Shown here piece after piece: positions 7,567 to 61,342 of a stretch of DNA of 64,000 nucleotides (position 1 is its first letter; every line of letters begins with the position of its first letter). Made by a program: the position numbers and the translations under genes. The DNA comes from an uncultured Thermoleophilia bacterium (GTDB taxonomy: Bacteria > Actinomycetota > Thermoleophilia > UBA2241). Location: contig CAVQLY010000007.1 in assembly GCA_963713475.1 (NCBI GenBank), positions 64,834 through 128,833 of the forward strand. The letters run 5' to 3'. The notes beneath the pieces are model-generated. The model was not told the origin of the DNA. It made no database searches and saw nothing but the letters and a program-made list of their open reading frames with translations.

Positions 7567-8070
7567 ATGCCTCACGTGTTGATCTCGAGCAAGAAGTGCA
7601 CCGGCTGCCATATGTGCGAGCTGGCCTGCTCCGCGCAGCATGAGGGCGCCTATCGCCCGTCCGTTGCGCGACTGTTCAGCGAGTGCAATCCGACCACGGG
7701 TGCGACCAAGGGCCACACCTGCCTGCAGACCGCGTGCCACAAGTGCCAGGACGCCTGCCCCGCGGGCGCCATCGTCACCAAGGAAATCACGGTGAAGGTC
7801 AAGGGCGAGTTCGCCGGCAAGGAGAAGATCGGCGGCGACACCGTCAAGGGCTACGTCCTCGTCGTCGACGAGGACCTCTGCACCAACTGCGGCGACTGCT
7901 ACGAGGCCTGCCCCTACGATGTCATCCACGAGCACCCGGAGCGCGAGGTCGCGTTCAAGTGCGACCTCTGCGACGGCGAGCCCCAGTGCATCGCCTTCTG
8001 CCAGAACCCCCACGTCCTCGCCGTCGATCTCAAGGTCGACAAGATGGACAGGGAGCTGGCGCAGGCCTGA
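7567..8070 (+). CDS. 4Fe-4S dicluster ferredoxin-domain protein (AOR partner)
   Basis: CTGCHMCELAC, CHKCQDACP, CTNCGDCYEACP and CDLCDG..CIAFC motifs. GAAGGAG RBS before ATG 7567. Confidence 0.75.
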   Translation: MPHVLISSKKCTGCHMCELACSAQHEGAYRPSVARLFSECNPTTGATKGHTCLQTACHKCQDACPAGAIVTKEITVKVKGEFAGKEKIGGDTVKGYVLVVDEDLCTNCGDCYEACPYDVIHEHPEREVAFKCDLCDGEPQCIAFCQNPHVLAVDLKVDKMDRELAQA

Positions 8071-8072
8071 TC

Positions 8073-8342
8073 GTGACGCCCGCGTTCGTCAGACTGCCGG
8101 TCGGCATGACCACGCCGGACGGCGGCAAGGAAGTCGAGTGCCACGGGGCCACGGTCCGCGAGGTGATCGACGAGGCCATCGCGGTCGAGCCGCGCATGCG
8201 CGCCCGCATCTTCCGTGAAGACGGGCGCATGTTCGCCGGCGTGTTCCTGAACGGCCGCAACATCAACGCCCTGGGCGGCATGGACACGGCGGTCGCCGAC
8301 GGCGACAAGCTCACCGTCGTCCCGCCCATGTCGGGCGGCTGA
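8073..8342 (+). CDS. MoaD/ThiS-family ubiquitin-like sulfur-carrier protein
   Basis: About 89 aa ending ..GDKLTVVPPMSGG (C-terminal Gly-Gly). Start GTG 8073 or ATG 8106. Confidence 0.6.
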   Translation: MTPAFVRLPVGMTTPDGGKEVECHGATVREVIDEAIAVEPRMRARIFREDGRMFAGVFLNGRNINALGGMDTAVADGDKLTVVPPMSGG

Positions 8343-8365
8343 CGGCCGCAGCGGACGCAAGGTCC

Positions 8366-8404
8366 GGACGGGGCGGGTGCTCGTGAGGAGCGCCCGCCCC
8401 GTCC
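8366..8404 (+). terminator. Stem-loop terminator after the aor-fdx-moaD operon
   Basis: 17-bp stem GGACGGGGCGGGTGCTC / GAGCGCCCGCCCCGTCC (one G-U), 5-nt loop. Confidence 0.55.
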
Positions 8405-8408
8405 TCGT

Positions 8409-8417
8409 TGGTACACT
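8409..8417 (+). promoter_or_regulatory. Extended -10 element (TGgTACACT); predicts leaderless nitroreductase-pylBCD mRNA
   Basis: Hexamer TACACT ends 6 nt before ATG 8424. It follows the terminator at 8366-8404 directly. Confidence 0.45.
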
Positions 8418-8423
8418 GGACGC

Positions 8424-9086
8424 ATGAGCGGCCGCGGCAGCAGATCGAGACTCGAGACCACCGGCTTCGCCGACGCCGTGCACGGGCGGTCGAGCGTGCG
8501 CAAGTACGCGCCGGAGCCGGTTCCCCGCGAGGACGTCGAGGCCATGGTCGGCGTCGCCGTCAGGGCGGCCAACGCCGGCAACGCCCAGACGTGGCGGTTC
8601 GTCGCCGTCGAGCACGCCGATCTGCGAGCCGCCATGAAGCAGGCGGTCGACGACGTGCTCGACGAGATGGGCGCCTGGCCGGAGGCCGCCGGCCTGGAGA
8701 AGGAGCTCAAGGCCTACCGCGCTTACGCGACCTTCTTCGCCGATGCCCCCGTCGTGATCGCCGTCTTCGGCCGGGCGTACCACTCGCTGGCCGACGAGCT
8801 CCACGAGCGCCGGGGTCTGCCGCGGGACGAGCGCGACCGGCTCCGCCAGCGGCCCGACATCCAGAGCCTCGGCGGGGCCATCCAGCTGCTCTGCAATGCA
8901 GCGCACGCCATGGGGTACGGCTCCTGCTGGATGACCGCCCCCGTGCTCGCGGCGCCCGCCATCGAGGAGTTGCTCGGCGTCGAAGCGCCGCTCGAGCTCG
9001 CGGCGCTCGTCCCGGTCGGCAGGCCGCTGACGTCGCCCACGCCCTCGTCGCGGCGGCCCGTCGAGGACGTCCTCGAGTTCCGGTGA
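8424..9086 (+). CDS. Nitroreductase-family FMN oxidoreductase
   Basis: RSSVRKYAPEPVPREDVEAMV..AANAGNAQTWRFV.. and ..GYGSCWM.. nitroreductase-fold signatures. TGA overlaps GTG of pylB (GTGA at 9083-9086). Confidence 0.8.
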   Translation: MSGRGSRSRLETTGFADAVHGRSSVRKYAPEPVPREDVEAMVGVAVRAANAGNAQTWRFVAVEHADLRAAMKQAVDDVLDEMGAWPEAAGLEKELKAYRAYATFFADAPVVIAVFGRAYHSLADELHERRGLPRDERDRLRQRPDIQSLGGAIQLLCNAAHAMGYGSCWMTAPVLAAPAIEELLGVEAPLELAALVPVGRPLTSPTPSSRRPVEDVLEFR

Positions 9087-10156
9087 CCTCCGTGAGCCCC
9101 CAGCGTTCCGTCGCCGGCCTCTGCGCCGACATCCTGCAAGGAGCCGTCCCGAGCGAGGCGGACCTCGAAGCACTGCTGCGCGCCGGCGAAGAGGCACCTC
9201 TGGTGTTCGCCGCCGCGCGCGAGGCGCGCGCCCGCCACTCGGGCGACGCGGTCTTCCTCTACGGCTTCGTCTACTTCTCCACCTACTGCCGTAACGAGTG
9301 CGCCTTCTGCTTCTACGGCGCGGGCAACGACGAGAGTCCGCGCTATCGCAAGACCACGGACGAGGTCGTCGCGATCTGCCGCGACCTCGCGGCGTCCGGG
9401 GTGGTGCTCCTCGACCTGACCATGGGCGAGGACCCCGCCATCCACGACGAACCGGGCCACACGGCGCTGCTCGAGCTCGTCGGCGCCGTCGCGACGGAGA
9501 CGGGCGCGCCGGTCATGGTCTCGCCGGGCGTGCTGCCGGAGGCCTCGCTGCGCGAGCTGAAGGCCGCCGGTGCGGACTGGTACGCGCTGTATCAGGAGAC
9601 GCACACGCAGGAGCTGTACGAGAGCCTTCGCGTGGGCCAGCCGTTCGCGGCGCGCGTCGCCGCGCGCAGCGCGGCCCGGCGCGCCGGCCTGCTCGTGGAG
9701 GACGGCCTTCTCACGGGCATCGGCGACACGGCCGCCGACCGCGCCCGCTCCATCGTGGCCATGCGCGAGGCAGGCTGGGAGCAGGTCCGCGTGATGACCT
9801 TCGTCCCGCAGGCGGGGACGCCGCTCGCCGACGTGAGCCCTGCCGGCGACGCCGACGAACTGCTCACCATCGCCGCCATGCGTCTCGCCATGCCGGACCG
9901 GCTGATCCCGGCCTCGCTCGACGTGGACGGCATCGCCGGTCTCGAGCGCCGGCTCGAGGCGGGCGCCAATGTGGTCACGTCCATCGTGCCGCCCACGGTC
10001 GGCCTCGCCGGGGTCTCGCAGGCCGAGCTCGACATCGACGAGGGTCACCGGACCGTCCACGGTGTGCTGCCGCACCTCGAGCGGCTGGGGCTGCGGCCGG
10101 CCGGCGTGGACGAGTATCGCGAGCGGATGGCGCGCCTGGCGGTCGTCCCGGGGTGA
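9083..10156 (+). CDS. pylB: Methylornithine synthase PylB (radical SAM lysine mutase)
   Basis: Radical SAM motif YCRNECAFCFY. BioB/HydE-like TIM barrel of about 357 aa, immediately followed by pylC and pylD. Start GTG 9083 (or 9092). Confidence 0.85.
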   Translation: MTSVSPQRSVAGLCADILQGAVPSEADLEALLRAGEEAPLVFAAAREARARHSGDAVFLYGFVYFSTYCRNECAFCFYGAGNDESPRYRKTTDEVVAICRDLAASGVVLLDLTMGEDPAIHDEPGHTALLELVGAVATETGAPVMVSPGVLPEASLRELKAAGADWYALYQETHTQELYESLRVGQPFAARVAARSAARRAGLLVEDGLLTGIGDTAADRARSIVAMREAGWEQVRVMTFVPQAGTPLADVSPAGDADELLTIAAMRLAMPDRLIPASLDVDGIAGLERRLEAGANVVTSIVPPTVGLAGVSQAELDIDEGHRTVHGVLPHLERLGLRPAGVDEYRERMARLAVVPG

Positions 10157-10160
10157 GTCC

Positions 10161-11403
10161 ATGCGTCTGTTGATCGTCGGCGGCAAGCTGCAGGGCACCG
10201 AGGCCGCCTATCTCGCCGACAAGGCCGGGTGGGACACGGTGCTCGTGGACCGGCGCGAGGCGCCGCCGGCCGCCGGCATCGCGCACGTGCACGTGCAGGC
10301 CGACGTCACCGCCGACGAAGCCGCGGCCAGGAGCCTCATCACCTCGTGCGACGCCGTCCTGCCGGCGTGCGAGGACGAGTCCACGCTGGCATGGCTGGCG
10401 GAGCGCGTCCCCGCCTGGGATGTGCCGCTGCTGTTCGACCTCGACGCCTACCGCGTCAGTGCGTCCAAGCTCGCGTCGCGGCGCCTGTTCGAGGACCTGG
10501 ACGTGCCGCGGCCGCGCGAGTGGCCGGCGTGCGGGTTTCCCGTCGTGGTCAAGCCCAGCACGGCCAGCGGCAGCGAGGGCGTGGTCGTGGCGCACGACGA
10601 GGCGGAGCTGGACGCCGCGCGGCGCGAACTGGAGCGCGGGGGCCACGAGGTCGTCGTGGAGGAGTACGTGGCCGGCCCGTCGCTCTCGCTCGAGGTGCTC
10701 GCCTGGGGCGGGCGGGCCGTGCCGCTCCAGGTCACGGGTCTCGAGTTCGACGCCGCCTACGACTGCCGGCGCGTGGTGGCGCCGGTGGGCGAAGCGGCCG
10801 GGGAGCCTGCGGCCGCCGGCCCCGGCGGCGCCTGCGCCTGGGACGCCGCCGTCTCCGCCGGCGTCCTGGCCGCCTTCGACGCCGCCTCCGTGCGCGTCGC
10901 AGAGGGCCTCGGCCTGAACGGCCTCATGGACGTCGAGGTGATGGTCGGCCGCGACGGGCCGAAGCTCCTCGAGATCGATGCCCGCCTGCCCAGCCAGACG
11001 CCGACGGCGGTCTACTGGTCGAGCGGGCTCAACATCGTGGAACTGCTGGAGCGGACCGTGCGCGACGCGGCGCCGCCGGCGATCGACCGGACGTCGCGGC
11101 GCGCCTGCGTCTACCAGCACGTGCGCGCGTCGCGAGGTATGCTGGACGTCCTCGGCGAGCACGTGATGGGCGCCGCCGGGCCGCTGCGTCTGGTGCCCGG
11201 CTTCTTCGGCGCCGACGAGGCGCTCACAGACTACGCGCCAGGGTCCTCCGAGTGGGCGGCGACGCTGATCGTCACCGGGTCCGAGCGTGCGCGAGGCGCG
11301 CGAGCGGGCGGCCGGAGTGGTCGCCGAGCTGGCGCGGCACGAGGGTCTGCGGGCCGCGCCCGAAGACGACCTGCAGAGGGCCGACGAGAGAGGTGCCCGA
11401 TGA
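10161..11403 (+). CDS. pylC: PylC, ATP-grasp (3R)-3-methyl-D-ornithine--L-lysine ligase; apparent +1 frame disruption near 11277-11286
   Basis: N-terminus MRLLIVGGKLQGTEAAYLADKAGWDTVLVDR and ..LLFDLDAYRVSASKLASR.., ..LLEIDARLPSQTP.., ..FFGADEALTDY..EWAATLIVTG match PylC. After ..IVTG the plausible tail SVREARERAAGVVAELARHEGL..ERGAR* continues in frame +1 and ends at TGA 11401-11403, overlapping the pylD ATG. Confidence 0.8.
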
Positions 11404-12206
11404 CACGACTCACAGAGACAGACGTCACCGCGCTCACGCGTGACCTCGAGGCCTTCGAGTCCAGATTGCTCGAGGCGACGGGCCTCGGTCTGCGCGACCT
11501 GGCTCTCCGCACCGTCACCGAAGGCGACCGCTGCGTCCAGCTGCACGGCGCCCGCATCGCCGCGGTGCCCATGTCGTCGGGTGCCGGCGTGATCCCCGGC
11601 TTCTCAGCGTGCGTCGTGGCGACGCTGCTGCACCTCGGCTGCGACGCCTGGATGACCACGCAGCCGGACGTCCGCGGCATCCAGGCGGCCGTCGCCCAGG
11701 GCGCCACCGTCCTCTTCCTCGCCGACGATCACCGCTTCGTAGCGCTCAACCTCACCAAGGCCTGCAGCGTGGACGACGACCCGGCCACGGCCGACGGCTA
11801 CGTCACGGCGCTCGAGACGGCCGCCGGCGGCCTCGAGGGGCGCGACGTGCTGCTCCTCGGCCTCGGTCCGGTGGGGCGCGCCGCCGCCCGCCGCCTGGCG
11901 TCCCGTGGCGCCAAGGTGCTCGTCGTCGAGCCGGATCAGCAGCGCGTCGAAGCCGCCCGCGAGGTGGGCCTCGCGTTCGAGACGACGGACCTTGCCGGAG
12001 GGCTCGCGCGCTGCGACCTCATCTTCGACGCGACGCCGGCGGCCGACATCATCGACGTGGCCGACCTGCGCGAGGGGACCATCGCCGCCGTACCCGGCAT
12101 GCCTTCGGCGTTCACCGCGGCGGCGCAGAAGGCCCTCGGCGTGCGCCACATCCACGAGCCGCTCGCCATCGGCGTCGCGGTCATGGCGGCGCGCGCGCTT
12201 CTCTGA
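11400..12206 (+). CDS. pylD: PylD, pyrrolysine synthase (NAD-dependent dehydrogenase)
   Basis: ..ARIAAVPMSSGAGVIPGFSACVVATLLHLG.., ..VLFLADDHRFVALNL.., Rossmann GLGPVGRAAARRL, ..IFDATPAADII.., ..EPLAIGVAVM.. parallel archaeal PylD. 268 aa. Confidence 0.85.
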   Translation: MTRLTETDVTALTRDLEAFESRLLEATGLGLRDLALRTVTEGDRCVQLHGARIAAVPMSSGAGVIPGFSACVVATLLHLGCDAWMTTQPDVRGIQAAVAQGATVLFLADDHRFVALNLTKACSVDDDPATADGYVTALETAAGGLEGRDVLLLGLGPVGRAAARRLASRGAKVLVVEPDQQRVEAAREVGLAFETTDLAGGLARCDLIFDATPAADIIDVADLREGTIAAVPGMPSAFTAAAQKALGVRHIHEPLAIGVAVMAARALL

Positions 12207-12259
12207 CGCCGCTGCGTCACCGCGCTCACGCCGGCGCCCCGCACCGGCGACCCGCGCGT

Positions 12260-12267
12260 TGTACAAT
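12260..12267 (+). promoter_or_regulatory. Candidate -10 element (TACAAT) for pylT
   Basis: TACAAT at 12262-12267, 10 nt upstream of the tRNA 5' end. No convincing -35. Confidence 0.35.
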
Positions 12268-12277
12268 CGCGTCGCGC

Positions 12278-12350
12278 GGGGGGTCGATCGGAAGGATCAG
12301 CGCGGGCTCTAAACCCACGTAGGCGGGTGTGACTCCCGCACTCCCCGCCA
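12278..12350 (+). tRNA. pylT: tRNA-Pyl (anticodon CUA)
   Basis: 73-nt cloverleaf. Acceptor GGGGGGU/ACUCCCC (one G-U). Single nt between acceptor and D stem. D stem GAUC/GAUC with 5-nt loop GGAAG (no GG). 6-bp anticodon stem (one C-A mismatch). Loop CUCUAAA with CUA at 12309-12311. 3-nt variable loop. T arm GCGGG-UGUGACU-CCCGC without GTTC. Discriminator G. CCA encoded. Confidence 0.85.
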
Positions 12351-12397
12351 CAAGCTCCCTCTCCACCGTCTCCGCTGCCGGAGCCTCCGGCTCGCGG

Positions 12398-13330
12398 TCA
12401 GTCCGCCGAGAAGGTGACGGGGATCTTCACCTCGTCCAGGCGGGAGCCGTCCTCCATGTCCTGATCGAAGACGATCAGGCTGCCGCGCTTCGCCGAGGTC
12501 GAGAAGGGGACCTCCTTGGCGAAGCGGCCGCGGCCGGGCGCGCCGACGCTCGCCTGCATGATCACGTTGACGATGCGGCGGCCCGAGGAGTCCACGAGCC
12601 TCGCCTGGAACGACCCCTCGAACACGCTGGCCGTGCCCGTCAGCGAGAACGGGCTGGTAAGCACGGCTCCGACGCCCGGCGACTCGACGAAGATGTTGGG
12701 CTCGAAGTCGCGCCAGTCGCTGCGACGCTGGGCCTCGGCGAGCGGGACACCCTCGCCGCCCAGCGCCTCGACCGGCTTCCCCTCGATGAGGAACTCGACC
12801 GAGCGCACGGTCGGGAACCGGGTCAGCGTGTAGACCACTTCGGCCACGCGGGCGGTCATGGAGAGACTGCCGCCGCCCGAGGCAAAAGCCTCGGACAGGT
12901 CGACCTGGGCCGTGGTCCCGGAGATGGCGAGCCCGAGGAGTCTCGTGCCGGCCGGCACCGTGCTCGTCAGGCCGGCGGACGTCTCCGCGGCTGTGGGGCC
13001 GGCGAGCAGGGCCTCCATGGCCGCCGTCGCCGGCATGGAGGTGTGCGCGACGCGGCGCTCGGCCACGCCGAGCTTCTCGTCGCGCAGGAAGTACAGCCGC
13101 AGCGACGTCTCGGGGGCGGCCCCCGGTGACGAGGATGGAGACGCCGAGCCCGACGGTATGGACGTAGGGTCGACCGTTGCGGAGTCGGTGGCGGTGGGCT
13201 GCGAGGAGGCGCCGCCGGACGAGCCGCCGCAGGCGGCGAGCAGTGCGGCGCCGGCGAGGATGAGGACTGCCGCGGAGATCAGCAGGAGCGGAAGCAGGCG
13301 GCCGAGGCCGGCTGCGGCGCGACGGGTCAT
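12398..13330 (-). CDS. GerM-domain lipoprotein with C-terminal Ig-like (Gmad2-type) domain
   Basis: Signal peptide with lipobox LLAAC. ..LRLYFLRDEKLG..AAMEALLAGP..TAQVDLS.. is GerM-like. 310 aa. Confidence 0.65.
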   Translation of the reverse strand: MTRRAAAGLGRLLPLLLISAAVLILAGAALLAACGGSSGGASSQPTATDSATVDPTSIPSGSASPSSSPGAAPETSLRLYFLRDEKLGVAERRVAHTSMPATAAMEALLAGPTAAETSAGLTSTVPAGTRLLGLAISGTTAQVDLSEAFASGGGSLSMTARVAEVVYTLTRFPTVRSVEFLIEGKPVEALGGEGVPLAEAQRRSDWRDFEPNIFVESPGVGAVLTSPFSLTGTASVFEGSFQARLVDSSGRRIVNVIMQASVGAPGRGRFAKEVPFSTSAKRGSLIVFDQDMEDGSRLDEVKIPVTFSAD

Positions 13331-13400
13331 CGGGCACCTCGGGTCTGGATGGGCCGGGATGGAACCTTCGACGCGCGCTCCGGGCGCTCCTGCCCGCCCG

Positions 13401-13409
13401 TGCTAGACT
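13401..13409 (+). promoter_or_regulatory. Extended -10 element (TGcTAGACT) predicting a (near) leaderless pylSn transcript
   Basis: Hexamer ends 9 nt before ATG 13419. No Shine-Dalgarno in between. Confidence 0.4.
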
Positions 13410-13418
13410 GGCCTCCCG

Positions 13419-13748
13419 ATGCCGACCGACCCCACCAAAGCGCGGTACTACCGCAAGCAGGTCCCGCTCTTCCGCCTGGTCGAGAAGGTCAAGCTGTGGC
13501 CGTCGCGGCGCGGCATCCTGCACGGGATCAGGGAGTTCGAGGAGCGCGGCTCCTACGCCGTCGTGGTGACGCACTGCAACAAGCACATGGTCGTCCACGA
13601 CTCCAAGACGAGCCGCGCCGCCCGCTGGCTGCGCAACAAGTGGTTCGCGGAGGCCTGTCCGCAGTGCCGCATCCCCGAGTGGAAGCTCCAGAAGTACGCC
13701 TCGACGCAGTTCAAGCGGGGCTACGGGTCGCACCTCAAGGACCTGTGA
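13419..13748 (+). CDS. pylSn: PylSn, stand-alone N-terminal tRNA-Pyl-binding domain of pyrrolysyl-tRNA synthetase
   Basis: ..KLWPSRRGILHGIREFEERGSYAVVVTHCNKHMVVHDSKTSRAARWLRNKWFAEACPQCRIPEWKLQKY.. parallels the Methanosarcina PylS N-terminus ([52 protein letters not shown]). 109 aa. Confidence 0.85.
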   Translation: MPTDPTKARYYRKQVPLFRLVEKVKLWPSRRGILHGIREFEERGSYAVVVTHCNKHMVVHDSKTSRAARWLRNKWFAEACPQCRIPEWKLQKYASTQFKRGYGSHLKDL

Positions 13749-13800
13749 GCCGTCGCCGGCGCGACCGCTCTCGCGGGCGATGGCGGCTGGGACGCGCGTC

Positions 13801-14685
13801 CTAGAGCAGCCGCCAGCTCTCCGGCCGCAACTGCGTCGCGGCCGGTGCGTCCAGCACTCTGTCCAGCTGCGCGACGATGGCCGCCTTGTCGCCGGGCAGG
13901 CGGCCTCCGATCGGAAGGTAGTTCGAGGCGTGGTTGCAGCGGAAGAGGCAGTCGCTGACGTCGAGGTTCGCGACGATCTCGCGCAGTTCGCGCAGGATCC
14001 CGATGGAGTCCGGCAGCACGACCTGGCTGGTCGCCACCTTGCGCTCCATGGCCGTCCCGGGGGTCAGCATGAGGGTGAGCAGCCCGATGTACTCCGGGTC
14101 GATGGTCGAGAGGACCTCGCCGGTGGCCACTGCGTGCACCAGCGAGCGCTCGCGCCCGGCGAGCCCGAGGATCGCGGTCACCGAGAGCTGCATGCCGGCT
14201 TCCGACGCTCGCCGGCAGCCCTCGATCTGCTCCGCCACGGTGATGCCCTTGTGGATGTCGGCGAGCGTTTGCTCGTCGCCTGATTCGAGGCCGAGGTAGA
14301 GGAGCTCGACGCCGCGCTCACGCAGCGCCGCGAGCTCGTCCACGGACTTGCCGAGCAGGTTCCGCGCGTTGGCGTAGCTGCTCACGCGCTCCAGGTTCGG
14401 AAGCGCCCGGTGCAGGAGGTCGAGGATCGCGTCGAGCTTGCGCGAGCTGAGCGCCATGGCGTCGCCGTCGGCCAGAAAGACGCGGCGCACCCGCTGGCGG
14501 ACGGTGACCGGGAGGCCGGTGATGTCCTCGACGACCTCGTCGAACGGACGCACGGCGAAGGGCTTCTCCAGGTACGTGCCGCAGAAGTCGCAGGTGTTGT
14601 TGGAGCAGCCGTACGTGACCTGGACGATCAGGCTGTCGGCCTCGCTCGGAGGGCGGATGACGGCACCGTGGTATCGCATGTCCAC
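13801..14685 (-). CDS. Radical SAM protein of unknown function with atypical CX4CX2C cluster motif
   Basis: ..VQVTYGCSNNTCDFCGTY.. plus ..VFLADGDAMAL.., ..LYLGLESGDE.. radical SAM core. 294 aa. GTG start. Ends in TAG. Divergent from the corrinoid protein gene. Confidence 0.7.
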   Translation of the reverse strand: MDMRYHGAVIRPPSEADSLIVQVTYGCSNNTCDFCGTYLEKPFAVRPFDEVVEDITGLPVTVRQRVRRVFLADGDAMALSSRKLDAILDLLHRALPNLERVSSYANARNLLGKSVDELAALRERGVELLYLGLESGDEQTLADIHKGITVAEQIEGCRRASEAGMQLSVTAILGLAGRERSLVHAVATGEVLSTIDPEYIGLLTLMLTPGTAMERKVATSQVVLPDSIGILRELREIVANLDVSDCLFRCNHASNYLPIGGRLPGDKAAIVAQLDRVLDAPAATQLRPESWRLL

Positions 14686-14727
14686 GATGCTAGCATGGGC
14701 GCCCGGCCGGCGCGTCCCGGAGGGGTC

Positions 14728-14851
14728 GGCCGGATGGGCATGTCCGTTTCATGTTCGACCCTGTGCACTTGTGGTCGCGGATTCAAGCGGCTGATATACT
14801 CGCCCGCACGTGCTGAGGGAGGGCGTTCGGGGGAGCGTCCGGCCGGATGGG
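14728..14851. repeat. Direct repeat GGCCGGATGGG (14728-14738 and 14841-14851) in the radical SAM / corrinoid-protein divergent intergenic region
   Basis: Identical 11-mer cores 113 bp apart with similar flanks (..ATGTCCG / ..ATCCGGTCCG). Perfect palindrome ATGCTAGCAT at 14687-14696 next to the radical SAM start. Confidence 0.5.
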
Positions 14852-14963
14852 ATCCGGTCCGTACATTCCTCCGGCTTGCGGTGTCATGCGCCCGAACTCC
14901 GTACCCGCCATACCTAGTTGCGCGGTAAACAGTTGTGAGCAAAGTCGGGAGGAGTCCAGGGTC

Positions 14964-15597
14964 ATGGCAGACATCTACCAGGAAGCAGCCGAGAGCATCG
15001 TGAACGCCGACAGGGCATCGGTCCGAGGAGATCGCGCAGCGCGCGCTCGACTCGGGCATCGCCCCAGCGGACATCATGCAGAACGGCTTCGTCAAGGGCA
15101 TCCAGGAGGTCGGCGACCTCTTCGAGAGCGGTGAGGTCTTCCTCCCCGAGCTGATGATGAGCGCGGACGCCATGGCCGGCGCCACCGAGATCACAAACGC
15201 CGCCCTCGAGGGCGAGGCCGCCGAGGCCAAGGGCATCATGGTCATCGGCACCGTCCAGGGCGACGTGCACGACATCGGCAAGGCGATCGTCATCGCCTAC
15301 CTCAAGGCCAACGGCTACGAGGTCACCGACCTCGGCCGCGACGTCTCTGCCGACACCTTCATCGACAAGGCCAAGGAGCTCAACGCCGACGTCATCGGCA
15401 TGAGCGCCCTGCTCACCACCACCATGGAAGAGCAGAAGAAGGTCATCAAGCGCATCAAGGACGAGGGCCTCTCCTACAAGACGGTCGTCGGCGGCGCCCC
15501 GTGCACGCAGCGCTGGGCCGACCAGATCGGCGCCGACGCCTACGCCGAAGACGCCAACGACGGCGTCAAGAAGATCGACGCGCTGCTCGGCAAGTAA
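14964..15597 (+). CDS. Methyltransferase-cognate corrinoid protein (MtmC/MtbC/MttC-like); apparent +1 frame disruption near 15018-15027
   Basis: N-terminal cap helix MADIYQEAAESIVNADRA.. (frame 0) continues as EEIAQRALDSGIAPADIMQNGFVKGIQEVGDLFESGEVFLPELMMSADAM (frame 1). B12-binding DxHxxG motif (GDVHDIGK). ..SALLTTTM... About 210 aa if repaired. Confidence 0.75.
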
Positions 15598-15626
15598 GAC
15601 CGCCGCACAGCTGTTCAGGGTGACCC

Positions 15627-15663
15627 GAGAGGGGCGGGAGCGCGCAGCGCTCCCGCCCCTCTC
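15627..15663 (+). terminator. Stem-loop terminator after the corrinoid protein gene
   Basis: Perfect 17-bp stem GAGAGGGGCGGGAGCGC / GCGCTCCCGCCCCTCTC with 3-nt loop. Confidence 0.6.
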
Positions 15664-15728
15664 GCATTGAGGCGCGTATCGCCGTGCCGCGTGGGGTAGT
15701 CACTGGGTGTCGACGCGAGGAGGCGATC

Positions 15729-16430
15729 GTGACTGCGGCACCCATCGTGCTGGTACCCGGATTCTGGCTCGGCGCGTGGGCCTGGGATGAGGTCGCGGGC
15801 ATACTGCGCGCCGAGGGGCACGAGGTCACGGCGGTGACTCTGCCCGGCCTCGAATCGACCGATGCCGACCGCTCGGAGGTCACGCTGGCCGACCACGCGG
15901 AGACGATCCGCGACGCGGTCGCGGCGGCCGGACGGCCGGTCGTGCTGGCCGTCCACAGCGGGGCCGGGGCTCCCGGCTACGTCGCCAGCGACCGCATCCC
16001 CGAGCAGATCGCCGCCATGGTCTACGTCGACTCGGGTCCGGCCACCGGAGCGATCGATCCCGAGATGTCGGCGACGGAGTGGGCACTTCCCGCGTGGGAG
16101 GAGCTCGACGAGAACCTCGATGGGCTGACCGAAGCGCACCTCGAGGAGTTCCGCGCCCGGGCGGTGCCCGAGCCGGGCGCGGCGGTTCGAGATGCACCCG
16201 ACCTGAGCAACGAGGCGCGTCGCGACGTGCCGACGGTGGTCATCTGCACGTCGTTCTCGTCCGACGAGATCAAGGCCGCCGTCGCCGAGGGCTATGCGTG
16301 GACCGGCGGCATCGCCGAACTGCGCGACGTCACCTGGGTCGACCTGCCGACGAGCCACTGGCCGATGTGGTCGCGTCCGCGGGAGCTCGCCGATATCATC
16401 GGCGACGTCGCGAAGGCACACGCCTCCTAG
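15729..16430 (+). CDS. Alpha/beta-fold hydrolase
   Basis: ..IVLVPGFWLGAWAWDEV.., ..VLAVHSGAG.. nucleophile elbow. GTG 15729 preceded by GAGGAGG. Ends in TAG. Confidence 0.65.
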   Translation: MTAAPIVLVPGFWLGAWAWDEVAGILRAEGHEVTAVTLPGLESTDADRSEVTLADHAETIRDAVAAAGRPVVLAVHSGAGAPGYVASDRIPEQIAAMVYVDSGPATGAIDPEMSATEWALPAWEELDENLDGLTEAHLEEFRARAVPEPGAAVRDAPDLSNEARRDVPTVVICTSFSSDEIKAAVAEGYAWTGGIAELRDVTWVDLPTSHWPMWSRPRELADIIGDVAKAHAS

Positions 16431-16463
16431 ACGCCTGGCGGCGTGACTCGCGGCGCAGCGGCG

Positions 16464-17324
16464 CTAGAGGTTGAGGCGCACGCCGTCGACGTAGCTGAGG
16501 CTGCGTCCGGCGCGCTCGATATTGGGGTAGCCTTCGCGCGCCATGATGAGCCGCTCGACGCCGAAGCCGAGGCCCACCCACGGGTCGACGATGCCCCAGT
16601 TGCTGTCGAGGGGGTGGGGGCCGAGGCCGGCGGAGCACACCTCGGCGCCGTTCACGAGCACGTCGACCATCTCGCCGTACACCTCGGACTCGGTCACCTC
16701 GAGCTCGTAGTGCGCGATGCCCGCCGCGCGCATGACCAGTGACGCGAGCTCGACGAGCCGTGTGCGCCCCTCGCTCTCGGGCCTGCCGAGCTCGACGAGG
16801 TTGAGCATCGTGAACTCGTTGAGGTGGCTGGCGCCCTTGCTGTCGCGGCGGAAGCAGGGGCCGATCTCGAAGATGCCGAACGGCTTGCTCCAGTTGCGGT
16901 CGAGGCGCCGCAGCAGCGTGTACAGGTTCGGCGCCAGCATGGGCCGCAGGCAGCGGCCGTCCTCGAGCCAGAACACCTGGTCGCGCAGGGGATGGCCGTG
17001 CTCGATGCCCATCTTGCGCAGGGAGTCCGAGGCGATGATCAGCGGCGTGGCGACGCGCACGAAGCCGGCGTCGGTGAGGGCATCGCTGAGAACGCGCTCG
17101 AGCTCGATCAGCTGCGGCGCGCGCCTGCCGGCGCGCAGGTCCTTGAGCCGCTGCCGGCCGTCCTTCACGAGCTCGCCCTCGAGGCGCTTGAAGGCGGCGT
17201 CGCGCAGCTGGACGTCGGCGAACAACTCGTCGAGGACGAGCGGGTCGGCGCCGAGCTCGCGCAGCCGCTGCGACTGCGTCGCCGTGAGGCGAATGCGGAG
17301 GGCTTCGGCTTCGTCGGGCGTCAT
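16464..17324 (-). CDS. pylSc: PylSc, catalytic domain of pyrrolysyl-tRNA synthetase (bacterial split type)
   Basis: ..CLRPMLAPNLYTLLRRLDR..IFEIGPCFRRDSKGASHLNEFTMLNLVELG.., ..IVDPWVGLGFGVERLIMAREG.., C-terminus ..RSLSYVDGVRLNL closely parallel Desulfitobacterium/Methanosarcina PylS. ATG 17324 has a GAGGAGGAGG RBS and overlaps the amidase stop (ATGA). Ends in TAG. Confidence 0.9.
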   Translation of the reverse strand: MTPDEAEALRIRLTATQSQRLRELGADPLVLDELFADVQLRDAAFKRLEGELVKDGRQRLKDLRAGRRAPQLIELERVLSDALTDAGFVRVATPLIIASDSLRKMGIEHGHPLRDQVFWLEDGRCLRPMLAPNLYTLLRRLDRNWSKPFGIFEIGPCFRRDSKGASHLNEFTMLNLVELGRPESEGRTRLVELASLVMRAAGIAHYELEVTESEVYGEMVDVLVNGAEVCSAGLGPHPLDSNWGIVDPWVGLGFGVERLIMAREGYPNIERAGRSLSYVDGVRLNL

Positions 17325-18412
17325 GACGCCTCCTCCTCGTCCGCGAGTGGAGCGCGCGCGAGATAGTCGGCGAAGCCGCCGGCGAGCGCGCGCGCCAGTC
17401 GTTCGACGTGCTCCGGCCGGCGCGCCAGCGCCTCGTCCTCGGAGCTGGTGAGGAACAAGGGCTCGACCACGAGAGCGATGCCGCGGGCCTCGCGGAGCAG
17501 GGCGTAGTTGCGCCCGAACCGGCCCAGCCACGGCACGCCGGCGGCCTCCATGCGGGCGCCGATGGAACCCGCCAGCCGGCGCCCGTGTTCGGAGTAGTAG
17601 TGGCTGCGCTGGAAGTAGTAGCCGGCGGCGCCGCAGGCAGCCGGCGACGGCGCCTGGTTGCAGTGCAGCGAGAGGAAGAAGTCGGACGCGTTGCCGTTGG
17701 CCGCCTCGGCGCGCGCGTAGAGCGGCACGCGCTCGTCCGCGTCGCGCGTGAGCTGCACGCGGCAGCCCTCCGCGCGCAGCAGCTCGGCGAGCCGCAGGCC
17801 GAGCGCCAGCGCCACGTCCTTCTCGGCGAGGCCTCGCGCCGAGACGACGCCGGTGTCGGCGCCGCCGTGGCCCGGGTCGATGGTCACCGACTGGCCGGTG
17901 AGGCCGCGGGCGGCGACGTAGCCGCGGTCGCGCTCGGGGATCTTCTTGCCCTCGCGACCCGACTCGGCCTTGCGCACGGCCTCGAGCTTCGTGAGGGTGC
18001 TCTCGCCGACGATGCCGTCCGCCGGGAGGCCGGCGTTGCGCTGGAAGTCCAGCACGGCGCGCTCGACCTCGTCGTCGTGCACGCCGCGCTCGGGTCCGGC
18101 GTTGAACCCGAGCAGGTTGAGCTTGACCTGGAGCTGGAGGACGTCGTCGCCGCGGAACGGCGGTTCGCGCAGGTAGAGCAGGCGGTCGCCGAGCGCGTAG
18201 CCGGACTCCACCATCTCGCGCCAGGTGTTGGCGCCGACCCGCCCGTCGGCGAGCAGGCCGCGTTCCTGCTGGAACGAGAGGACCGCGGTCTCGGTGTGCG
18301 GGCCGAAGAAGCCGTCCACGCCTTCTCGGCCCAGCTCGAAGCCTTGCCCGCGCAAGCGGGTCTGGACGTCGAGGACTTCTTTGCCGCGGTCGCCGCGTGA
18401 AAGGTCGCGCAC
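17321..18412 (-). CDS. N-acetylmuramoyl-L-alanine amidase (two PG-binding domains plus Amidase_3 domain)
   Basis: Two GxxVxxLQxxLxxLGF-type repeats (KEVLDVQTRLRGQGF, DDVLQLQVKLNLLGF). C-terminal ..VTIDPGHGGADTG..FLSLHCN.. amidase_3 motifs. Confidence 0.8.
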   Translation of the reverse strand: MRDLSRGDRGKEVLDVQTRLRGQGFELGREGVDGFFGPHTETAVLSFQQERGLLADGRVGANTWREMVESGYALGDRLLYLREPPFRGDDVLQLQVKLNLLGFNAGPERGVHDDEVERAVLDFQRNAGLPADGIVGESTLTKLEAVRKAESGREGKKIPERDRGYVAARGLTGQSVTIDPGHGGADTGVVSARGLAEKDVALALGLRLAELLRAEGCRVQLTRDADERVPLYARAEAANGNASDFFLSLHCNQAPSPAACGAAGYYFQRSHYYSEHGRRLAGSIGARMEAAGVPWLGRFGRNYALLREARGIALVVEPLFLTSSEDEALARRPEHVERLARALAGGFADYLARAPLADEEEAS

Positions 18413-18529
18413 CGGTGACTCCTGGTCGCTTCCGGGGGTTCTTGGGCCCCCGATTCTATACGACTGACCCTCGAAGCGGAGTCAGCGGGCGGTGCCGCAG
18501 GAGACCGCAGCGAGCGTGCACCGAGCCAG

Positions 18530-19378
18530 TCAGATGCCCATGCCCGAGCGCACGCCCGCGAGGACCAGGATGATCACGCCGACGCCGATCACGATGCGGT
18601 AGATGACGAAGATGTTGAAGTTGTGCCGCTTGAGGTAGGCGAGTACGAACCAGATGGCCGCGATGCCGCTCAGGGCGGCCGCGACCATCCCGACGGCGAA
18701 CGGCATGGCGGTGCCCGACGGGAGCCCGTCCTTCGCGATCTGCAGCCCCTTGAAGGCGGCGGCTCCGCCGATGACGGGGATGCTCATGAGGAACGAGTAG
18801 CGTGCCGCCGATTCGCGGTCGAGGCGCAGGAGCAGGCCCGTCATCATCGTGATGCCGGAGCGCGAGACGCCGGGCAGGAGCGCCAGGGCCTGCGCGACGC
18901 CGATGAGGACCGCGTCGAACCAGCTGAGAGCCTCGAGGTCGCGGTCGAGCTTCGCGATGTGGTCGATGAGGTACATGAAGCCGGCGAAGACGATCATCGC
19001 CACGCCGATCATCCACGGCTTGCCGAGCGTGTTGGTGATGAAGTCCTCGAACAGGACGCCCACGATCGCCGCCGGGATCGTGCTGACGATGAGGAGCCAC
19101 GCCAGCTTGCTCTCCGGCTCGGCGAGGCTGCGCCTGGAGATGCTCCGCACCCAGGCGCCGATGAGCCGCCCGATCTCCCGCCAGAAGTAGATGACGACGG
19201 CGACGAACGTGCCCAGGTGCAGGGCGACGTCGAACGTCTTGTTCAAGTCCGGGTTCTCGAGCAGGAAGTGCCAGTTGAACAGCCACGGGACGAGGAGCAG
19301 GTGGCCGGAGCTCGAGATGGGCAGGAACTCGGTCAGGCCCTGGACGATACCCAGGATGATCGCCTGGAGGACGGTCAT
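18530..19378 (-). CDS. uppP: Undecaprenyl-diphosphate phosphatase
   Basis: ..GIVQGLTEFLPISSSGHL.. and ..PGVSRSGITM.. BacA/UppP motifs. 282 aa polytopic membrane protein. Confidence 0.9.
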   Translation of the reverse strand: MTVLQAIILGIVQGLTEFLPISSSGHLLLVPWLFNWHFLLENPDLNKTFDVALHLGTFVAVVIYFWREIGRLIGAWVRSISRRSLAEPESKLAWLLIVSTIPAAIVGVLFEDFITNTLGKPWMIGVAMIVFAGFMYLIDHIAKLDRDLEALSWFDAVLIGVAQALALLPGVSRSGITMMTGLLLRLDRESAARYSFLMSIPVIGGAAAFKGLQIAKDGLPSGTAMPFAVGMVAAALSGIAAIWFVLAYLKRHNFNIFVIYRIVIGVGVIILVLAGVRSGMGI

Positions 19379-35015: not shown

Positions 35016-35090
35016 TCGGTGCTGTCCTCCGGCGTCACGCCTGTGGAGTGACGCGCGGTCGCGTACCACGGTTCGGGGTGAGAACGTATT

Positions 35091-35143
35091 CGTGCCTGAG
35101 GCCGCGTTCCCTACGCGAGCGGGGGAACGCGGCCTCAGGCACG
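35091..35143 (-). terminator. Terminator hairpin between the two NlpC/P60 paralogues
   Basis: Perfect 21-bp stem CGTGCCTGAGGCCGCGTTCCC / GGGAACGCGGCCTCAGGCACG. Confidence 0.6.
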
Positions 35144-35150
35144 CGGTAGA

Positions 35151-37824: not shown

Positions 37825-37975
37825 GGTGCTCCTTGAACCAGGGAGTGCGCCTGGGCCCGCGGACACGCGTGCGGGCCGGCGACGATCCCGTCAGTCATTC
37901 GACCGGACGGTGACCGCCGCGGGTCCTCCCAGTGGACAGTCGACGTATGGCCGGCGTGCCGGCGTGGTGTACATG

Positions 37976-60255: not shown

Positions 60256-61342
60256 ATGGCCACGATCGACGACCTCATCACCGAGATAGAACGCTCCTAC
60301 GACGAGCTCACCGCGCAGCTCGCCGACCCTGAGGTGCACGGCGACCGCGCGCGGTACGCAGACGCCGCGCGCGCCCACGCCGAACTCCAGCCGGTCCACG
60401 AGCTCACGCAGCTGTATCGCGAGGCGGAGCAGACGGTCGCCGACGCCGAGGGCCTCCTCGGCGACGACTCCAGCCGACGCCGAGATGCGCGAGTTCGCGC
60501 AGGAGGAGCTCAGCCTCGGGCGCCGGCGCGTCGACGAACTCAGCGAGGAGATCCGCGTGCGCATGCTCACGCGGGACCCCAACGACGGCAAGGACGTGAT
60601 CATCGAGATCCGCGCCGGCACCGGCGGCAACGAGGCCTGCATCTTCGCCGGCGAGCTCGCGCGGATGTACACGCGCTACGCCCAGGCCAAGGGGTTCGAG
60701 GTCGAGATCCTCTCCGCCAACGAGAACGACGACGGCGGCTACAAGGAGGTCACGCTCGGGGTCAAGGGCCAGGGCGCCTTCTCGATGCTCAAGTACGAGG
60801 GCGGCGTGCACCGCGTGCAGCGCGTCCCGGTCACCGAGGCCGCCGGCCGCATCCACACCTCCACGGCCACCGTGGTCGTGCTGCCCGAGGCCGAGGACAT
60901 CGAGGTCGACATCCACGCGGGCGATCTGCGCGTCGAGATCTTCCGCGCCCGCGGCCCCGGCGGTCAGAGCGTCAACACCACCGACTCCGCCGTGCGCATC
61001 ACGCACGTGCCCACGGGCGTGAACGTCAGCTGCCAGGACGAGAAGAGCCAGCTCCAGAACAAGGAGAAGGCGATGCGGATCCTGCGCGCGCGGCTGTTCG
61101 AGCTCGAGCAGGCGAAGCAGGACCAGGAGCGTGGGGCCGCACGCCGCAGCATGGTCGGCAGCGGCGACCGCTCGCAGAAGATCCGCACCTACAACTTCCA
61201 GCAGAACCGCGTCAGCGACCACCGCATCGGGCTCACCAGCCATCGCCTCACCGAAGTCATGGAAGGCGACCTCGACGAGTTCACCGAGGCTCTGGCCGCC
61301 GAGGACCGGCGCAAGCAACTGGCGGCCGCCGGCGGCGAGTGA
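60256..61342 (+). CDS. prfA: Peptide chain release factor 1; apparent +1 frame disruption near 60466-60476
   Basis: N-terminal part [35 protein letters not shown] (frame of 60256) continues as [14 protein letters not shown].. (frame of 60485). PxT-type tripeptide (VPVTE), GGQ motif (RGPGGQSVN), ..[14 protein letters not shown]... Confidence 0.85.

Follow-up and report, generated by a model that had tools for sequence, protein, structure and literature searches.

A bacterial-type pyrrolysine system with a conserved, scattered gene layout in uncultured Thermoleophilia

Pyrrolysine (Pyl) is the 22nd amino acid. The closest described bacterial system is that of Desulfitobacterium hafniense, a single compact pylT-pylSc-pylBCD-pylSn cassette adjoining mttB-family and corrinoid genes. 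Acetohalobium arabaticum, studied by Prat and colleagues in 2012, reportedly makes facultative use of UAG. Actinobacteria are also on record: two of them were counted among PylRS genomes by Guo et al. 2022 (PMC9630628), and Ellenbogen et al. 2023 (PMC10805028) described Pyl-encoding mtbB and mttB expressed by Actinobacteriota MAGs from Stordalen Mire, naming the genus RBG-16-64-13 among the most active methylotrophs and leaving pylS, pylB, and pylT unmentioned. RBG-16-64-13 stands as a Thermoleophilia order in a taxonomy listing, and the NCBI protein name 'pyrrolysine--tRNA(Pyl) ligase large subunit [Thermoleophilia bacterium]' is already in use. The initial annotation of the DNA described here knew of no characterised Pyl system in such a background; the NCBI names and the two papers precede it.

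We describe the Pyl locus in a window of 64,000 nt (the whole stretch of DNA analysed) from an uncultured Thermoleophilia (Actinomycetota) bacterium, a soil host with a GC content of about 70%. The locus is a genuine and ordinary, though little-described, member of the known bacterial Pyl system. Proteins 67-96% identical to the window's PylSc occur in 47 bacterial GTDB species genomes, almost all of which bear the label Thermoleophilia; judged by these relatives, the host is an uncultured lineage of Thermoleophilia and no Firmicute, although its synteny had been read as Firmicutes-like. L032, one of the loci compared, is from a 'fen' MAG, a name that suggests Stordalen Mire. The features of the window that enter the argument are as follows.

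8424..9086, plus strand: nitroreductase-family gene, first of the nitroreductase-pylB-pylC-pylD-pylT unit (Pfam Nitroreductase, 1e-31)
9083..10156, plus strand: pylB, methylornithine synthase, radical SAM (TIGR03910, 442 bits versus a cut-off of 348)
10161..11403, plus strand: pylC, 3-methylornithine--L-lysine ligase, ATP-grasp (TIGR03909, 340 bits versus 248)
11400..12206, plus strand: pylD, 3-methylornithyl-N6-L-lysine dehydrogenase (TIGR03911, 200 bits versus 150)
12278..12350, plus strand: pylT, tRNA-Pyl, anticodon CUA (ARAGORN)
12398..13330, minus strand: GerM-like lipoprotein (Pfam Germane and Gmad2)
13400..13409, plus strand: extended -10-like box GTGCTAGACT (TGnTAGACT), from conservation among relatives
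13419..13748, plus strand: pylSn, stand-alone tRNA-binding N-terminal PylRS subunit (TIGR03912, 127 bits versus 51)
13801..14685, minus strand: small radical SAM enzyme, 294 aa (Pfam Radical_SAM only)
14964..15597, plus strand: methylamine-type corrinoid protein, MtbC/MttC-like (TIGR02370, 226 bits versus 215, repaired)
15684..16430, plus strand: alpha/beta hydrolase; its slot, flanked by the corrinoid gene and pylSc, varies among loci (Pfam Abhydrolase_6)
16464..17324, minus strand: pylSc, catalytic subunit of pyrrolysyl-tRNA synthetase (TIGR02367, 321 bits versus 178)
17321..18412, minus strand: cell-wall amidase, PG_binding_1 and Amidase_3 (NCBIfam and Pfam)
18530..19378, minus strand: bacA/uppP, upstream of the amidase on the same strand (Pfam BacA, 2e-87)
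60290..61342, plus strand: RF1-type class-I release factor (stop-to-stop ORF), followed by prmC (Pfam PCRF and RF-1)

The identity of the Pyl proteins was judged by NCBIfam equivalog models with curated cut-offs. All five proteins (PylB, PylC, PylD, PylSn, and PylSc) score above cut-off, and the next-best families, HydE, BioB, generic ATP-grasp, and PheS, score far lower; for PylB, whose cluster motif is CRNECAFC, HydE reaches 100 bits and BioB 81 bits. The best PDB matches of PylSc are the D. hafniense PylSc structures 3dsq and 2zni (E 1e-90, 53% identity), and PylSn matches the PylRS N-terminal domain structures 5ud5 and 5v6x (E 1e-12). The sixth locus, pylT, is the only tRNA that ARAGORN calls in the window. 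It has a 6-bp anticodon stem, a 3-nt variable loop, and a 5-nt D loop; 1 nt separates the acceptor and D stems, and CCA is encoded. A pylT lies at the matching position in 29 relatives, and L027, added by blastn, makes this 30 of 30. Cloverleaf pairing across relatives is 98.8%, versus 39-58% in slid controls, and 4 pairs in 3 helices are altered on both sides; the predicted cloverleaf is backed by this covariation. The six pyl loci proposed in the initial annotation are thus all real, at the positions it gave, and so is its Desulfitobacterium-type arrangement of split PylSn/PylSc with pylBCD and pylT.

The gene order is nitroreductase-pylB-pylC-pylD-pylT, GerM (minus strand), pylSn, radical SAM (minus), corrinoid, hydrolase, pylSc (minus), and amidase (minus), and Pfam and NCBIfam bear out all six non-pyl neighbours as first named. 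The cassette had been described as dispersed. The layout is indeed non-canonical; however, pylB, pylC, pylD, and pylT are contiguous, and only pylSn and pylSc stand apart. Nor is dispersal a peculiarity of this genome, since the same order recurs in 30 of 30 related loci that extend as far as pylBCD: the scattered layout is clade-wide, common to about 30 related species. pylB starts with GTG and overlaps the nitroreductase stop by 4 nt. The nitroreductase gene precedes pylB in 25 of 29 related loci, and its product has only weak, sub-threshold NCBIfam similarity to BluB and to the FbiB C-terminal domain. The GerM gene lies between pylT and pylSn in every related locus covering that position. 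The amidase is directly upstream of pylSc, its stop overlapping the pylSc start by 4 nt, and keeps this place in 47 of 47 bacterial loci; bacA, kept in most related loci, may head a bacA-amidase-pylSc unit, the spacing being compatible with co-transcription. Among related loci the alpha/beta hydrolase is restricted to the window, L051, and L006; elsewhere its slot holds, as judged from translations, a methyltransferase-like ORF or an aminotransferase-like ORF, or is empty. In more divergent clade members, pylSc directly adjoins pylSn, which suggests that the corrinoid, radical SAM, and hydrolase genes were inserted later.

Comparison with strain L051, an independent assembly 97.4% identical to the window, indicates how these genes evolve. 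The Pyl genes are under purifying selection, with dN/dS of 0.10 (pylB), 0.12 (pylC), 0.17 (pylD), 0.17 (pylSn), and 0.02 (pylSc); this range of 0.02-0.17 is similar to the 0.06-0.3 of their neighbours. The nitroreductase gene has a dN/dS of 0.14, the GerM gene 0.42, and the radical SAM gene 0.02.

Upstream of pylSn, GTGCTAGACT ends 9 nt before the ATG (9-11 nt across relatives). TANNNT occurs at that spacing in 28 of 33 sequences, and GTG(C/G)TA(G/C)ACT is nearly invariant. A sigma-70 consensus scan found no promoter, and there is no Shine-Dalgarno sequence between the box and the ATG. The short distance and the missing Shine-Dalgarno sequence fit a leaderless or near-leaderless pylSn transcript, and the conserved box fits the role of a putative pylSn promoter, in keeping with the leaderless-type promoter that had been attributed to this gene.

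Taken together, we consider it likely that the locus belongs to a functional, canonical Pyl system in Thermoleophilia, with clients elsewhere in the genome and with frameshifts that are errors. PylB, PylC, and PylD would make pyrrolysine from two lysines; PylSc, aided by the separate tRNA-binding PylSn, would charge tRNA-Pyl(CUA), and the charged tRNA would compete with RF1 at UAG codons. The clients would most likely include MtbB for dimethylamine, and possibly MttB for trimethylamine, and would pass methyl groups to the MtbC/MttC-type corrinoid protein of the block. Expression is predicted from at least 3 transcription units: nitroreductase-pylBCD-pylT, pylSn alone, and (bacA)-amidase-pylSc. 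The RF1-type factor has PVT (PxT) and GGQ motifs, and TAG closes 8 of 50 crudely called ORFs (about 16%); UAG would therefore have two readings, stop and Pyl. Such dual reading makes regulated pyl expression plausible, and the division into at least 3 separate units, one of them joined to a cell-wall operon of housekeeping type, speaks against one inducible cassette.

The frameshifts, both missed in the initial annotation, bear on this reading. The assembly has one extra base in pylC near 11284 and one in the corrinoid gene near 15020, so that pylC at 10161-11403 (1243 nt, no multiple of 3) changes frame, and the true corrinoid start is the ATG at 14964, not 15076. Repaired, pylC has 1242 nt (413 aa) and a TGA overlapping the pylD ATG (ATGA), and its product aligns with most relatives in one HSP over residues 1-413; the repaired corrinoid gene has 633 nt (210 aa), with an N-terminus identical to that in L001. 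In the assembly, a single unbroken ORF of 681 aa runs through 10161-12206 and carries both the PylC and PylD domains, and the same rare 8-mer, GGTCCGAG, marks both frame changes. A natural PylC-PylD fusion, or a programmed ribosomal frameshift at GGTCCGAG, would account for this, yet is highly improbable: the linker is an Arg/Gly-rich out-of-frame translation in place of the conserved PylC C-terminus, the GGTCCGAG site lacks the conservation expected of a programmed site, and the idea is largely refuted by the relatives, L051 included, none of which has the extra base and in which pylC and pylD are separate, overlapping genes. Decay of the system is unlikely but has more in its favor. It would make the frameshifts of the window, and those of L051 in its own pylC, pylD, and corrinoid gene, real and independent inactivating mutations after loss of the methylamine methyltransferase client. 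Window and L051 differ by 5 frameshifting coding indels, all of them in these three genes (about 2.7 kb); the remaining coding sequence, about 11 kb, has none, a clustering beyond that expected of uniform random error; the 64 kb hold no client gene, and the anticodon stem of the window's tRNA-Pyl has a C26.A40 mismatch. However, the dN/dS values of pylB, pylC, and pylD match those of housekeeping neighbours, no frameshift is common to window and L051, which has neither of the window's extra bases, and the window's pylB, pylSn, pylSc, and pylT are intact. Both window sites lie in GGTCCGAG, an 8-mer that the window contains only 3 times, pointing to a systematic consensus error. The MFD MAGs are Nanopore-only assemblies with one round of Medaka polishing (PMC12313526), and in many of them split HSPs that look like frameshifts also hit housekeeping genes, AOR, BacA, and the amidase being examples from other Nanopore MAGs; in the short-read MAGs L001 and L005 the genes are intact, and dropping one base from each window gene restores the proteins orthologous to those of L001. 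Given relatives without the extra bases, the shared rare 8-mer, and low dN/dS, the two frameshifts are most likely long-read assembly errors.

The choice of client can be weighed in the same manner. That the 64 kb lack an mtmB, mtbB, or mttB with in-frame TAG was correctly noted at the outset: six-frame tblastn (E<=10, three Pyl-type queries) and Pfam scans of called ORFs found no MtbB, MttB, or MtmB homolog there, and a Pyl-dependent gene is absent from the window and from 46 of 47 related loci. Some 8 kb from its pylSc, L014 carries a full-length mtbB whose Pyl codon is TAG (TIGR02368, 424 versus 369 bits). On contigs L049-L061, one of which is part of an NCBI 'Actinomycetota bacterium' MAG, 15 of 15 mtbB copies and 2 Pyl-type mttB copies have TAG at the Pyl site; a comparison of accession prefixes found no link between these islands and a Pyl-bearing MAG. 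It is conceivable, at similarly low probability to decay, that Pyl is active with a client other than or beyond methylamine methyltransferases, the radical SAM and corrinoid proteins forming a new Pyl- or corrinoid-linked pathway such as corrinoid activation or a split B12-radical SAM methylase. Of the 30 full-length related loci, 27 have the two genes as a divergent pair. The radical SAM gene is very strongly constrained; its product, with a CX4CX2C motif read from the sequence, lacks a B12-binding domain, although its weak NCBIfam matches are to B12-dependent radical SAM methylases. Moreover, neither a RamA-type activase nor an MT2 methyltransferase turned up in the window or the mtbB/mttB islands. 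Conversely, a conserved in-frame TAG is missing from every ORF of the block in all relatives, the corrinoid protein scores above the cut-off of the model for corrinoid proteins of methylamine methyltransferases (with MtbC as its best equivalog, at 217 bits under a cut-off of 350), and L031, L036, and L038 keep Pyl genes without the radical SAM gene. The AlphaFold model of the enzyme is poor (pLDDT 60) and the fold search gave generic matches only (TM<=0.46); adjacency by itself says little.

A canonical Pyl system thus remains the preferred reading, and it can be set beside those already described. Like D. hafniense, the window has split PylSn/PylSc, a PylSc 53% identical to that in 3dsq and 2zni, contiguous pylB-pylC-pylD, and a tRNA-Pyl with a bacterial-type cloverleaf; unlike D. 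hafniense, its pylT follows pylD, its pylSn is on its own after a GerM gene of the opposite strand, its pylSc is on the other strand and overlapped by an amidase, and its host is actinobacterial, with about 70% GC. As in Acetohalobium arabaticum, the host keeps RF1 and uses TAG as a common stop (8/50 ORFs), whereas the pyl genes lie in at least 3 units, one fused to a cell-wall operon. Methanosarcina mtbB/mtbC find counterparts in the L014 mtbB, which passes the MtbB equivalog with TAG at the Pyl codon, and in the window's corrinoid protein, which passes TIGR02370 and is nearest MtbC; in contrast to Methanosarcina, mtbB and the corrinoid gene are not neighbours, neither mtbA/MT2 nor ramA was seen, the score of the corrinoid protein is under the MtbC cut-off, and the host is no methanogen. 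The Stordalen Mire Actinobacteriota MAGs (PMC10805028) share the phylum and probably the class, and their clients are TAG-truncated mtbB and mttB. What the present analysis adds to that study is the Pyl machinery itself, the conservation of its layout, and its occurrence in about 47 species.

The six pyrrolysine (Pyl) loci proposed in the initial annotation are all present, as judged by NCBIfam equivalog models for the proteins and by ARAGORN for the tRNA. The loci, with scores against the cut-off of each model, are as follows.

9083-10156, pylB: TIGR03910, 442 bits (cut-off 348)
pylC: TIGR03909, 340 bits (cut-off 248)
pylD: TIGR03911, 200 bits (cut-off 150)
12278-12350, plus strand, tRNA-Pyl (pylT) with a CUA anticodon: ARAGORN, the sole tRNA called in the 64 kb
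13419-13748, pylSn: TIGR03912, 127 bits (cut-off 51)
16464-17324, minus strand, pylSc: TIGR02367, 321 bits (cut-off 178)

Rival families (HydE, BioB, generic ATP-grasp, and PheS) all score far below the Pyl equivalogs. PylSc aligns over its full length to the Desulfitobacterium hafniense protein (PDB 3dsq and 2zni; 53% identity, E 1e-90), and PylSn, encoded by a separate gene in the bacterial arrangement of the PylRS N-terminal tRNA-binding domain, matches the solved structures of that domain (PDB 5ud5 and 5v6x; E 1e-12). The neighbors are likewise those originally described: a nitroreductase-family gene that overlaps pylB, a GerM-type lipoprotein (Germane and Gmad2 domains), a radical SAM protein, a corrinoid protein, an alpha/beta hydrolase, and, beside pylSc, an Amidase_3 protein with peptidoglycan-binding domains.

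The RNA at 12278-12350, which ARAGORN calls as tRNA-Pyl in agreement with the initial annotation, folds into a cloverleaf whose acceptor, D, anticodon, and T stems measure 7, 4, 6, and 5 bp; one nucleotide separates the acceptor and D stems, the D loop has 5 nt, and the variable loop has 3 nt. Across 11 distinct sequences, pairing is kept in 98.8% of cells, and sliding the partners lowers this to 39-58%. Four pairs, spread over three helices, carry compensatory changes in which both sides are altered. The window tRNA has a C26.A40 mismatch at a position that is U-A in most relatives and C-G in one locus (L032). The generic Rfam tRNA model does not report this tRNA at E<=1, which fits its atypical form, and Rfam finds no riboswitch or other structured RNA within 8000-18600.

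Two gene models required correction. As first delimited, pylC measures 1243 nt, a length not divisible by 3, and frameshifts in pylC and in the corrinoid gene had been overlooked. The assembled ORF 10161-12206 reads from pylC through into pylD; near 11284 the PylC frame '...ATLIVTG' gives way to the +1 frame, read as 'VREARERAAGVVAELARHEGL...*' and closed by the TGA at 11401-11403. The corrinoid gene begins as 'MADIYQEAAESIVNADRA' from the ATG at 14964, and near 15020 another frame takes over as 'SEEIAQRALDSGIAPADIMQNGF...'. Deleting one base at each site yields proteins that match the intact orthologs of a short-read metagenome-assembled genome (MAG; L001): the repaired corrinoid N-terminus is identical, the repaired PylC C-terminus differs at a few residues, and the repaired PylC aligns to most relatives in a single HSP (1-413).

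We conclude that both frameshifts are assembly errors and that pylC is intact only once the extra base is removed. Neither extra base occurs in the independently assembled sister strain L051 (ENA ERZ25039477; 97.4% identity over 15.7 kb), and this absence, together with the intact L001 ortholog, leads us to reject both a PylC-PylD fusion and a programmed frameshift in pylC. The two sites share a rare 8-mer, GGTCCGAG, which has three occurrences over both strands of the window (11278-11285, 15020-15027, and, in minus orientation, 49651-49658), two of them exactly at the frameshifts. This recurrence suggests a systematic error of the Nanopore consensus that is specific to the motif; the sites are possibly methylated. 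Many 'MFD' MAGs, which are Nanopore-only assemblies with one round of Medaka polishing (PMC12313526), show similar split HSPs, scattered across AOR, BacA, amidase, and further genes; L001 and L005, a second short-read MAG, have none.

Genuine gene decay would also produce frameshifts, and one observation speaks for it: three further frameshifting insertions, private to the sister strain, lie in its pylC, pylD, and corrinoid genes, so that all five coding indels between the two assemblies fall in these three genes, a clustering that assembly error does not fully explain. Decay is, however, at odds with the low dN/dS values between window and sister strain (pylB 0.10, pylC 0.12, pylD 0.17, pylSn 0.17, pylSc 0.02), which are close to those of neighboring genes (TldD 0.08, amidase 0.10, HTH 0.11), and with the rare 8-mer shared by the window-specific sites. 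Assembly error thus remains our reading, and it carries a general caution: single-base frameshifts in Nanopore-only MAGs can mimic gene fusions or pseudogenes, as with pylC here.

The host, previously thought Firmicutes-like, is a deep-branching actinobacterium. A conservation scan that took a single genome from each GTDB species gave 47 bacterial loci whose PylSc is 67-96% identical to that of the window, and since nearly all are labeled uncultured Thermoleophilia or Actinomycetota MAGs, the host is placed with them; the sole outgroup is an archaeon at 47% identity. The Firmicutes impression probably arose from the gltX-cysS-rlmB-yacP-sigH order in the window. The loci come from Danish soils and sediments and, as isolate names indicate, from lakes, digesters, a fen, and permafrost. 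Two records depart from these labels despite Thermoleophilia-type synteny, L007 ('Deltaproteobacteria bacterium') and L038 ('candidate division Zixibacteria'); both are probably mis-binned or mislabeled MAG contigs.

When 16 window proteins are mapped onto the related loci, gene order is identical in all 30 that reach pylBCD. It runs AOR, 4Fe-4S protein, ThiS-like protein, nitroreductase, pylB, pylC, pylD, and pylT; then GerM (opposite strand), pylSn, radical SAM (opposite strand), the corrinoid gene, and a variable slot; and finally pylSc, preceded by an amidase and BacA, then OsmC. The broken-up cassette is laid out as first described, but it is the rule rather than an oddity in this clade. 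The amidase directly precedes pylSc in 47 of 47 loci, and tRNA-Pyl follows pylD in 29 loci by ARAGORN and in one more (L027) by blastn. What fills the variable slot before pylSc differs: the window, the sister strain, and L006 have the hydrolase there, between the corrinoid gene and pylSc, L015 and L048 have a methyltransferase-like ORF, and L034 has an aminotransferase-like ORF; in others it is empty. Insertions in L019, L027, L032, L034, and L048, checked for methyltransferases, contain unrelated genes only.

Divergent loci are more compact: in L038, pylSc lies directly beside pylSn, while L031 and L036 keep the corrinoid gene and have no radical SAM gene. Comparison of the loci suggests stepwise insertions into an originally tighter Pyl cluster, with a proposed order that leads from an L038-like state through gain of the corrinoid gene, then the radical SAM gene, and then the hydrolase.

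Upstream of pylSn, the motif GTG(C/G)TA(G/C)ACT is nearly invariant among the compared loci. A scan with the sigma-70 consensus returned no promoter; it was the comparison of loci that revealed this -10-like box, which ends 9-11 nt 5' of the ATG with no Shine-Dalgarno sequence between in 28 of 33 sequences. The leaderless-type start first proposed for pylSn agrees with this spacing, which supports a transcript that is leaderless or has at least a very short leader.

The corrinoid protein belongs with the methylamine methyltransferase cognate corrinoid proteins (MtmC/MtbC/MttC) described by TIGR02370: the repaired 210-aa protein scores 226 bits against a cut-off of 215 and has the B12-binding cap and Rossmann domains, while the truncated ORF as assembled, at 197.5 bits, falls below the cut-off. 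A narrower assignment to MtbC is not supported, and substrate specificity is left unassigned; NF041607 is the best equivalog match at 217 bits, against a cut-off of 350, and MtgC follows at 205 bits. The radical SAM protein (294 aa, 13801-14685) has PF04055 only. It does not classify as a class B (B12-dependent) methylase, as the N-terminal B12-binding domain is missing, and its weak matches to B12-radical SAM methylase models of the HpnJ and MJ0865 types cover the radical SAM part alone and lie far under the cut-offs. A Foldseek search with an AlphaFold model of poor quality (pLDDT 60) returned generic radical SAM folds only (TM<=0.46).

In 27 of 30 loci the corrinoid and radical SAM genes form a divergent pair flanked by pylSn and pylSc; the radical SAM gene is under strong constraint (dN/dS 0.02). 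It is conceivable, though we think it very improbable, that the pair forms a new two-component module linked to Pyl-dependent methyl transfer, be it a split B12-radical SAM enzyme or a route that replaces RamA in loading or reactivating the corrinoid; if so, it would tie Pyl decoding to undescribed methyl-transfer chemistry in a widespread actinobacterial lineage of soils and sediments. Elsewhere in the window, 36412-37890 (minus) encodes a distinct, full-length enzyme with B12-binding and Radical_SAM domains. About 26 kb from the Pyl block lie a DUF1638 protein (43200-44099, minus), a family commonly found alongside genes for corrinoid methyltransferases, and a CobA/BtuR ATP:corrinoid adenosyltransferase (44748-45482, plus).

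Which genes use Pyl? A scan for TAG-spanning ORFs on GC3 only gave mostly antisense shadow frames and was replaced by a GC1/2/3 caller and homology searches. When archaeal MtbB, MttB, and MtmB of the Pyl type (from locus L045, each with an in-frame TAG) are searched for in all six frames, the 64-kb window gives no match at E<=10, in keeping with the initial annotation, and 46 of the 47 related loci give none either. No ortholog of any Pyl-block gene shows a recurrent in-frame TAG.

L014 is the one related locus with a methyltransferase match: at a distance of about 8 kb from pylSc it carries mtbB in full length. Its TAG stands exactly at the Pyl codon ('...ILKVDGY[TAG]AGAGDAMGM...'), coding continues for about 110 codons, and the protein passes the MtbB equivalog (424 against 369 bits). 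In this gene (690-2054, minus) TAG serves as the internal Pyl codon and apparently also as the terminal stop ('...ERVGLSG*'). Its GC1 is 0.59, against 0.72-0.77 in neighboring genes, which hints at a foreign origin. The ABC transporter that accompanies mtbB on the contigs described next is lacking beside this gene, as it is from the window and the other loci.

Relatives 77-97% identical to this MtbB are abundant in public data, and almost all are about 344 aa long, a length that implies that gene callers cut mtbB at the TAG. Contigs with such genes (L049-L061; 65-70% GC) carry one to five mtbB each, and TAG occupies the Pyl site in 15 of 15 copies; two add a Pyl-type mttB, non-Pyl MttB paralogs, a corrinoid protein, a TetR regulator, and an ABC transporter. 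L059 (ERZ25039603 contig_6229) and L060 (ERZ25039462 contig_37520) are dense islands, each with four or five TAG-bearing mtbB and one Pyl-type mttB; their non-Pyl MttB-family paralogs have Gly at the Pyl position, and neither RamA nor MT2 Pfam domains occur within 21 kb. In L049, L050, L052-L055, and L061, a TAG-bearing mtbB precedes genes for an ABC substrate-binding protein, permease, and ATPase; this conserved module, which may be a methylamine uptake-plus-demethylation unit, sits downstream of surE-HAD-ligA, and the short contig L061 shows only the mtbB-ABC part. The L014 mtbB is an ortholog of the ABC-module copy ('DGY*' signature). One island contig is part of an NCBI 'Actinomycetota bacterium' MAG; compared by accession prefixes and source names, the islands and the Pyl-bearing MAGs share nothing beyond the phylum label 'Actinomycetota'. 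Because the islands cannot be placed in a genome with a Pyl cluster, L014 is the sole physical link between pyl genes and mtbB.

On this sequence evidence, UAG is probably read both as stop and as Pyl, since an RF1-type release factor with PVT and GGQ motifs is encoded beside prmC in the window and TAG terminates 8 of 50 crudely called ORFs. A Phd/YefM-type antitoxin ORF (61382-61645, plus) lies between the RF1 gene (60290-61342) and prmC (61703-62989).

Several further features of the window lie outside the Pyl block. At 3057-4088 (plus), a cyclophilin-type PPIase and a LeuD/HacB-like aconitase small subunit share one frame with no stop between them; they are separate genes in L038, and the single frame could stem from a true fusion, from loss of a stop codon, or from a further assembly error. 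At 33975-36302 (minus) lie two tandem paralogs for peptidoglycan hydrolases of the NlpC/P60 type that have a PcsB-like coiled coil; TAG ends the second paralog. ORF-like stretches with a coding-type GC pattern and no Pfam match occupy 53685-56120, 37837-38841, and 42473-43138 (all plus) and 62785-63912 (minus); one of them spans 811 codons.

Bacterial Pyl use is usually described for anaerobic Firmicutes and Deltaproteobacteria. NCBI already names several of the proteins found here 'pyrrolysine--tRNA(Pyl) ligase large subunit [Thermoleophilia bacterium]', and our literature search found no paper linking pyrrolysine with Thermoleophilia in substance. Guo et al. 2022 count two Actinobacteria among 81 bacterial PylRS genomes (PMC9630628). 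Ellenbogen et al. 2023 report Actinobacteriota MAGs that express Pyl-encoding mtbB and mttB, and they count the genus RBG-16-64-13 with the most active methylotrophs; pylS, pylB, and pylT are not described there (PMC10805028). In taxonomy, RBG-16-64-13 is listed as an order of Thermoleophilia. Our analysis adds a view of the system across the clade, the conservation of its rearranged layout, the corrinoid and radical SAM pair embedded in it, and the physical pyl-mtbB link of L014.

A whole lineage of uncultured GC-rich Thermoleophilia has complete Pyl machinery in one conserved, rearranged layout; its 47 species-level genomes derive from soil, sediment, lake, peat, and digester samples. Taken with the islands of TAG-containing mtbB and mttB and the published transcripts, this machinery suggests that Actinomycetota contribute to di- and trimethylamine demethylation in terrestrial habitats; in wetlands, methylotrophic methanogens would then meet a competitor for substrate. 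In practice, standard gene callers break mtbB and mttB genes of this kind in two at the TAG. The actinobacterial PylSn, PylSc, and tRNA-Pyl set could provide a further candidate orthogonal pair for genetic-code expansion. As for mechanism, the system is of the D. hafniense type: PylRS is split into PylSn and PylSc as in that organism, UAG would have the same dual reading as in other Pyl bacteria, and nothing found suggests a new mechanism.
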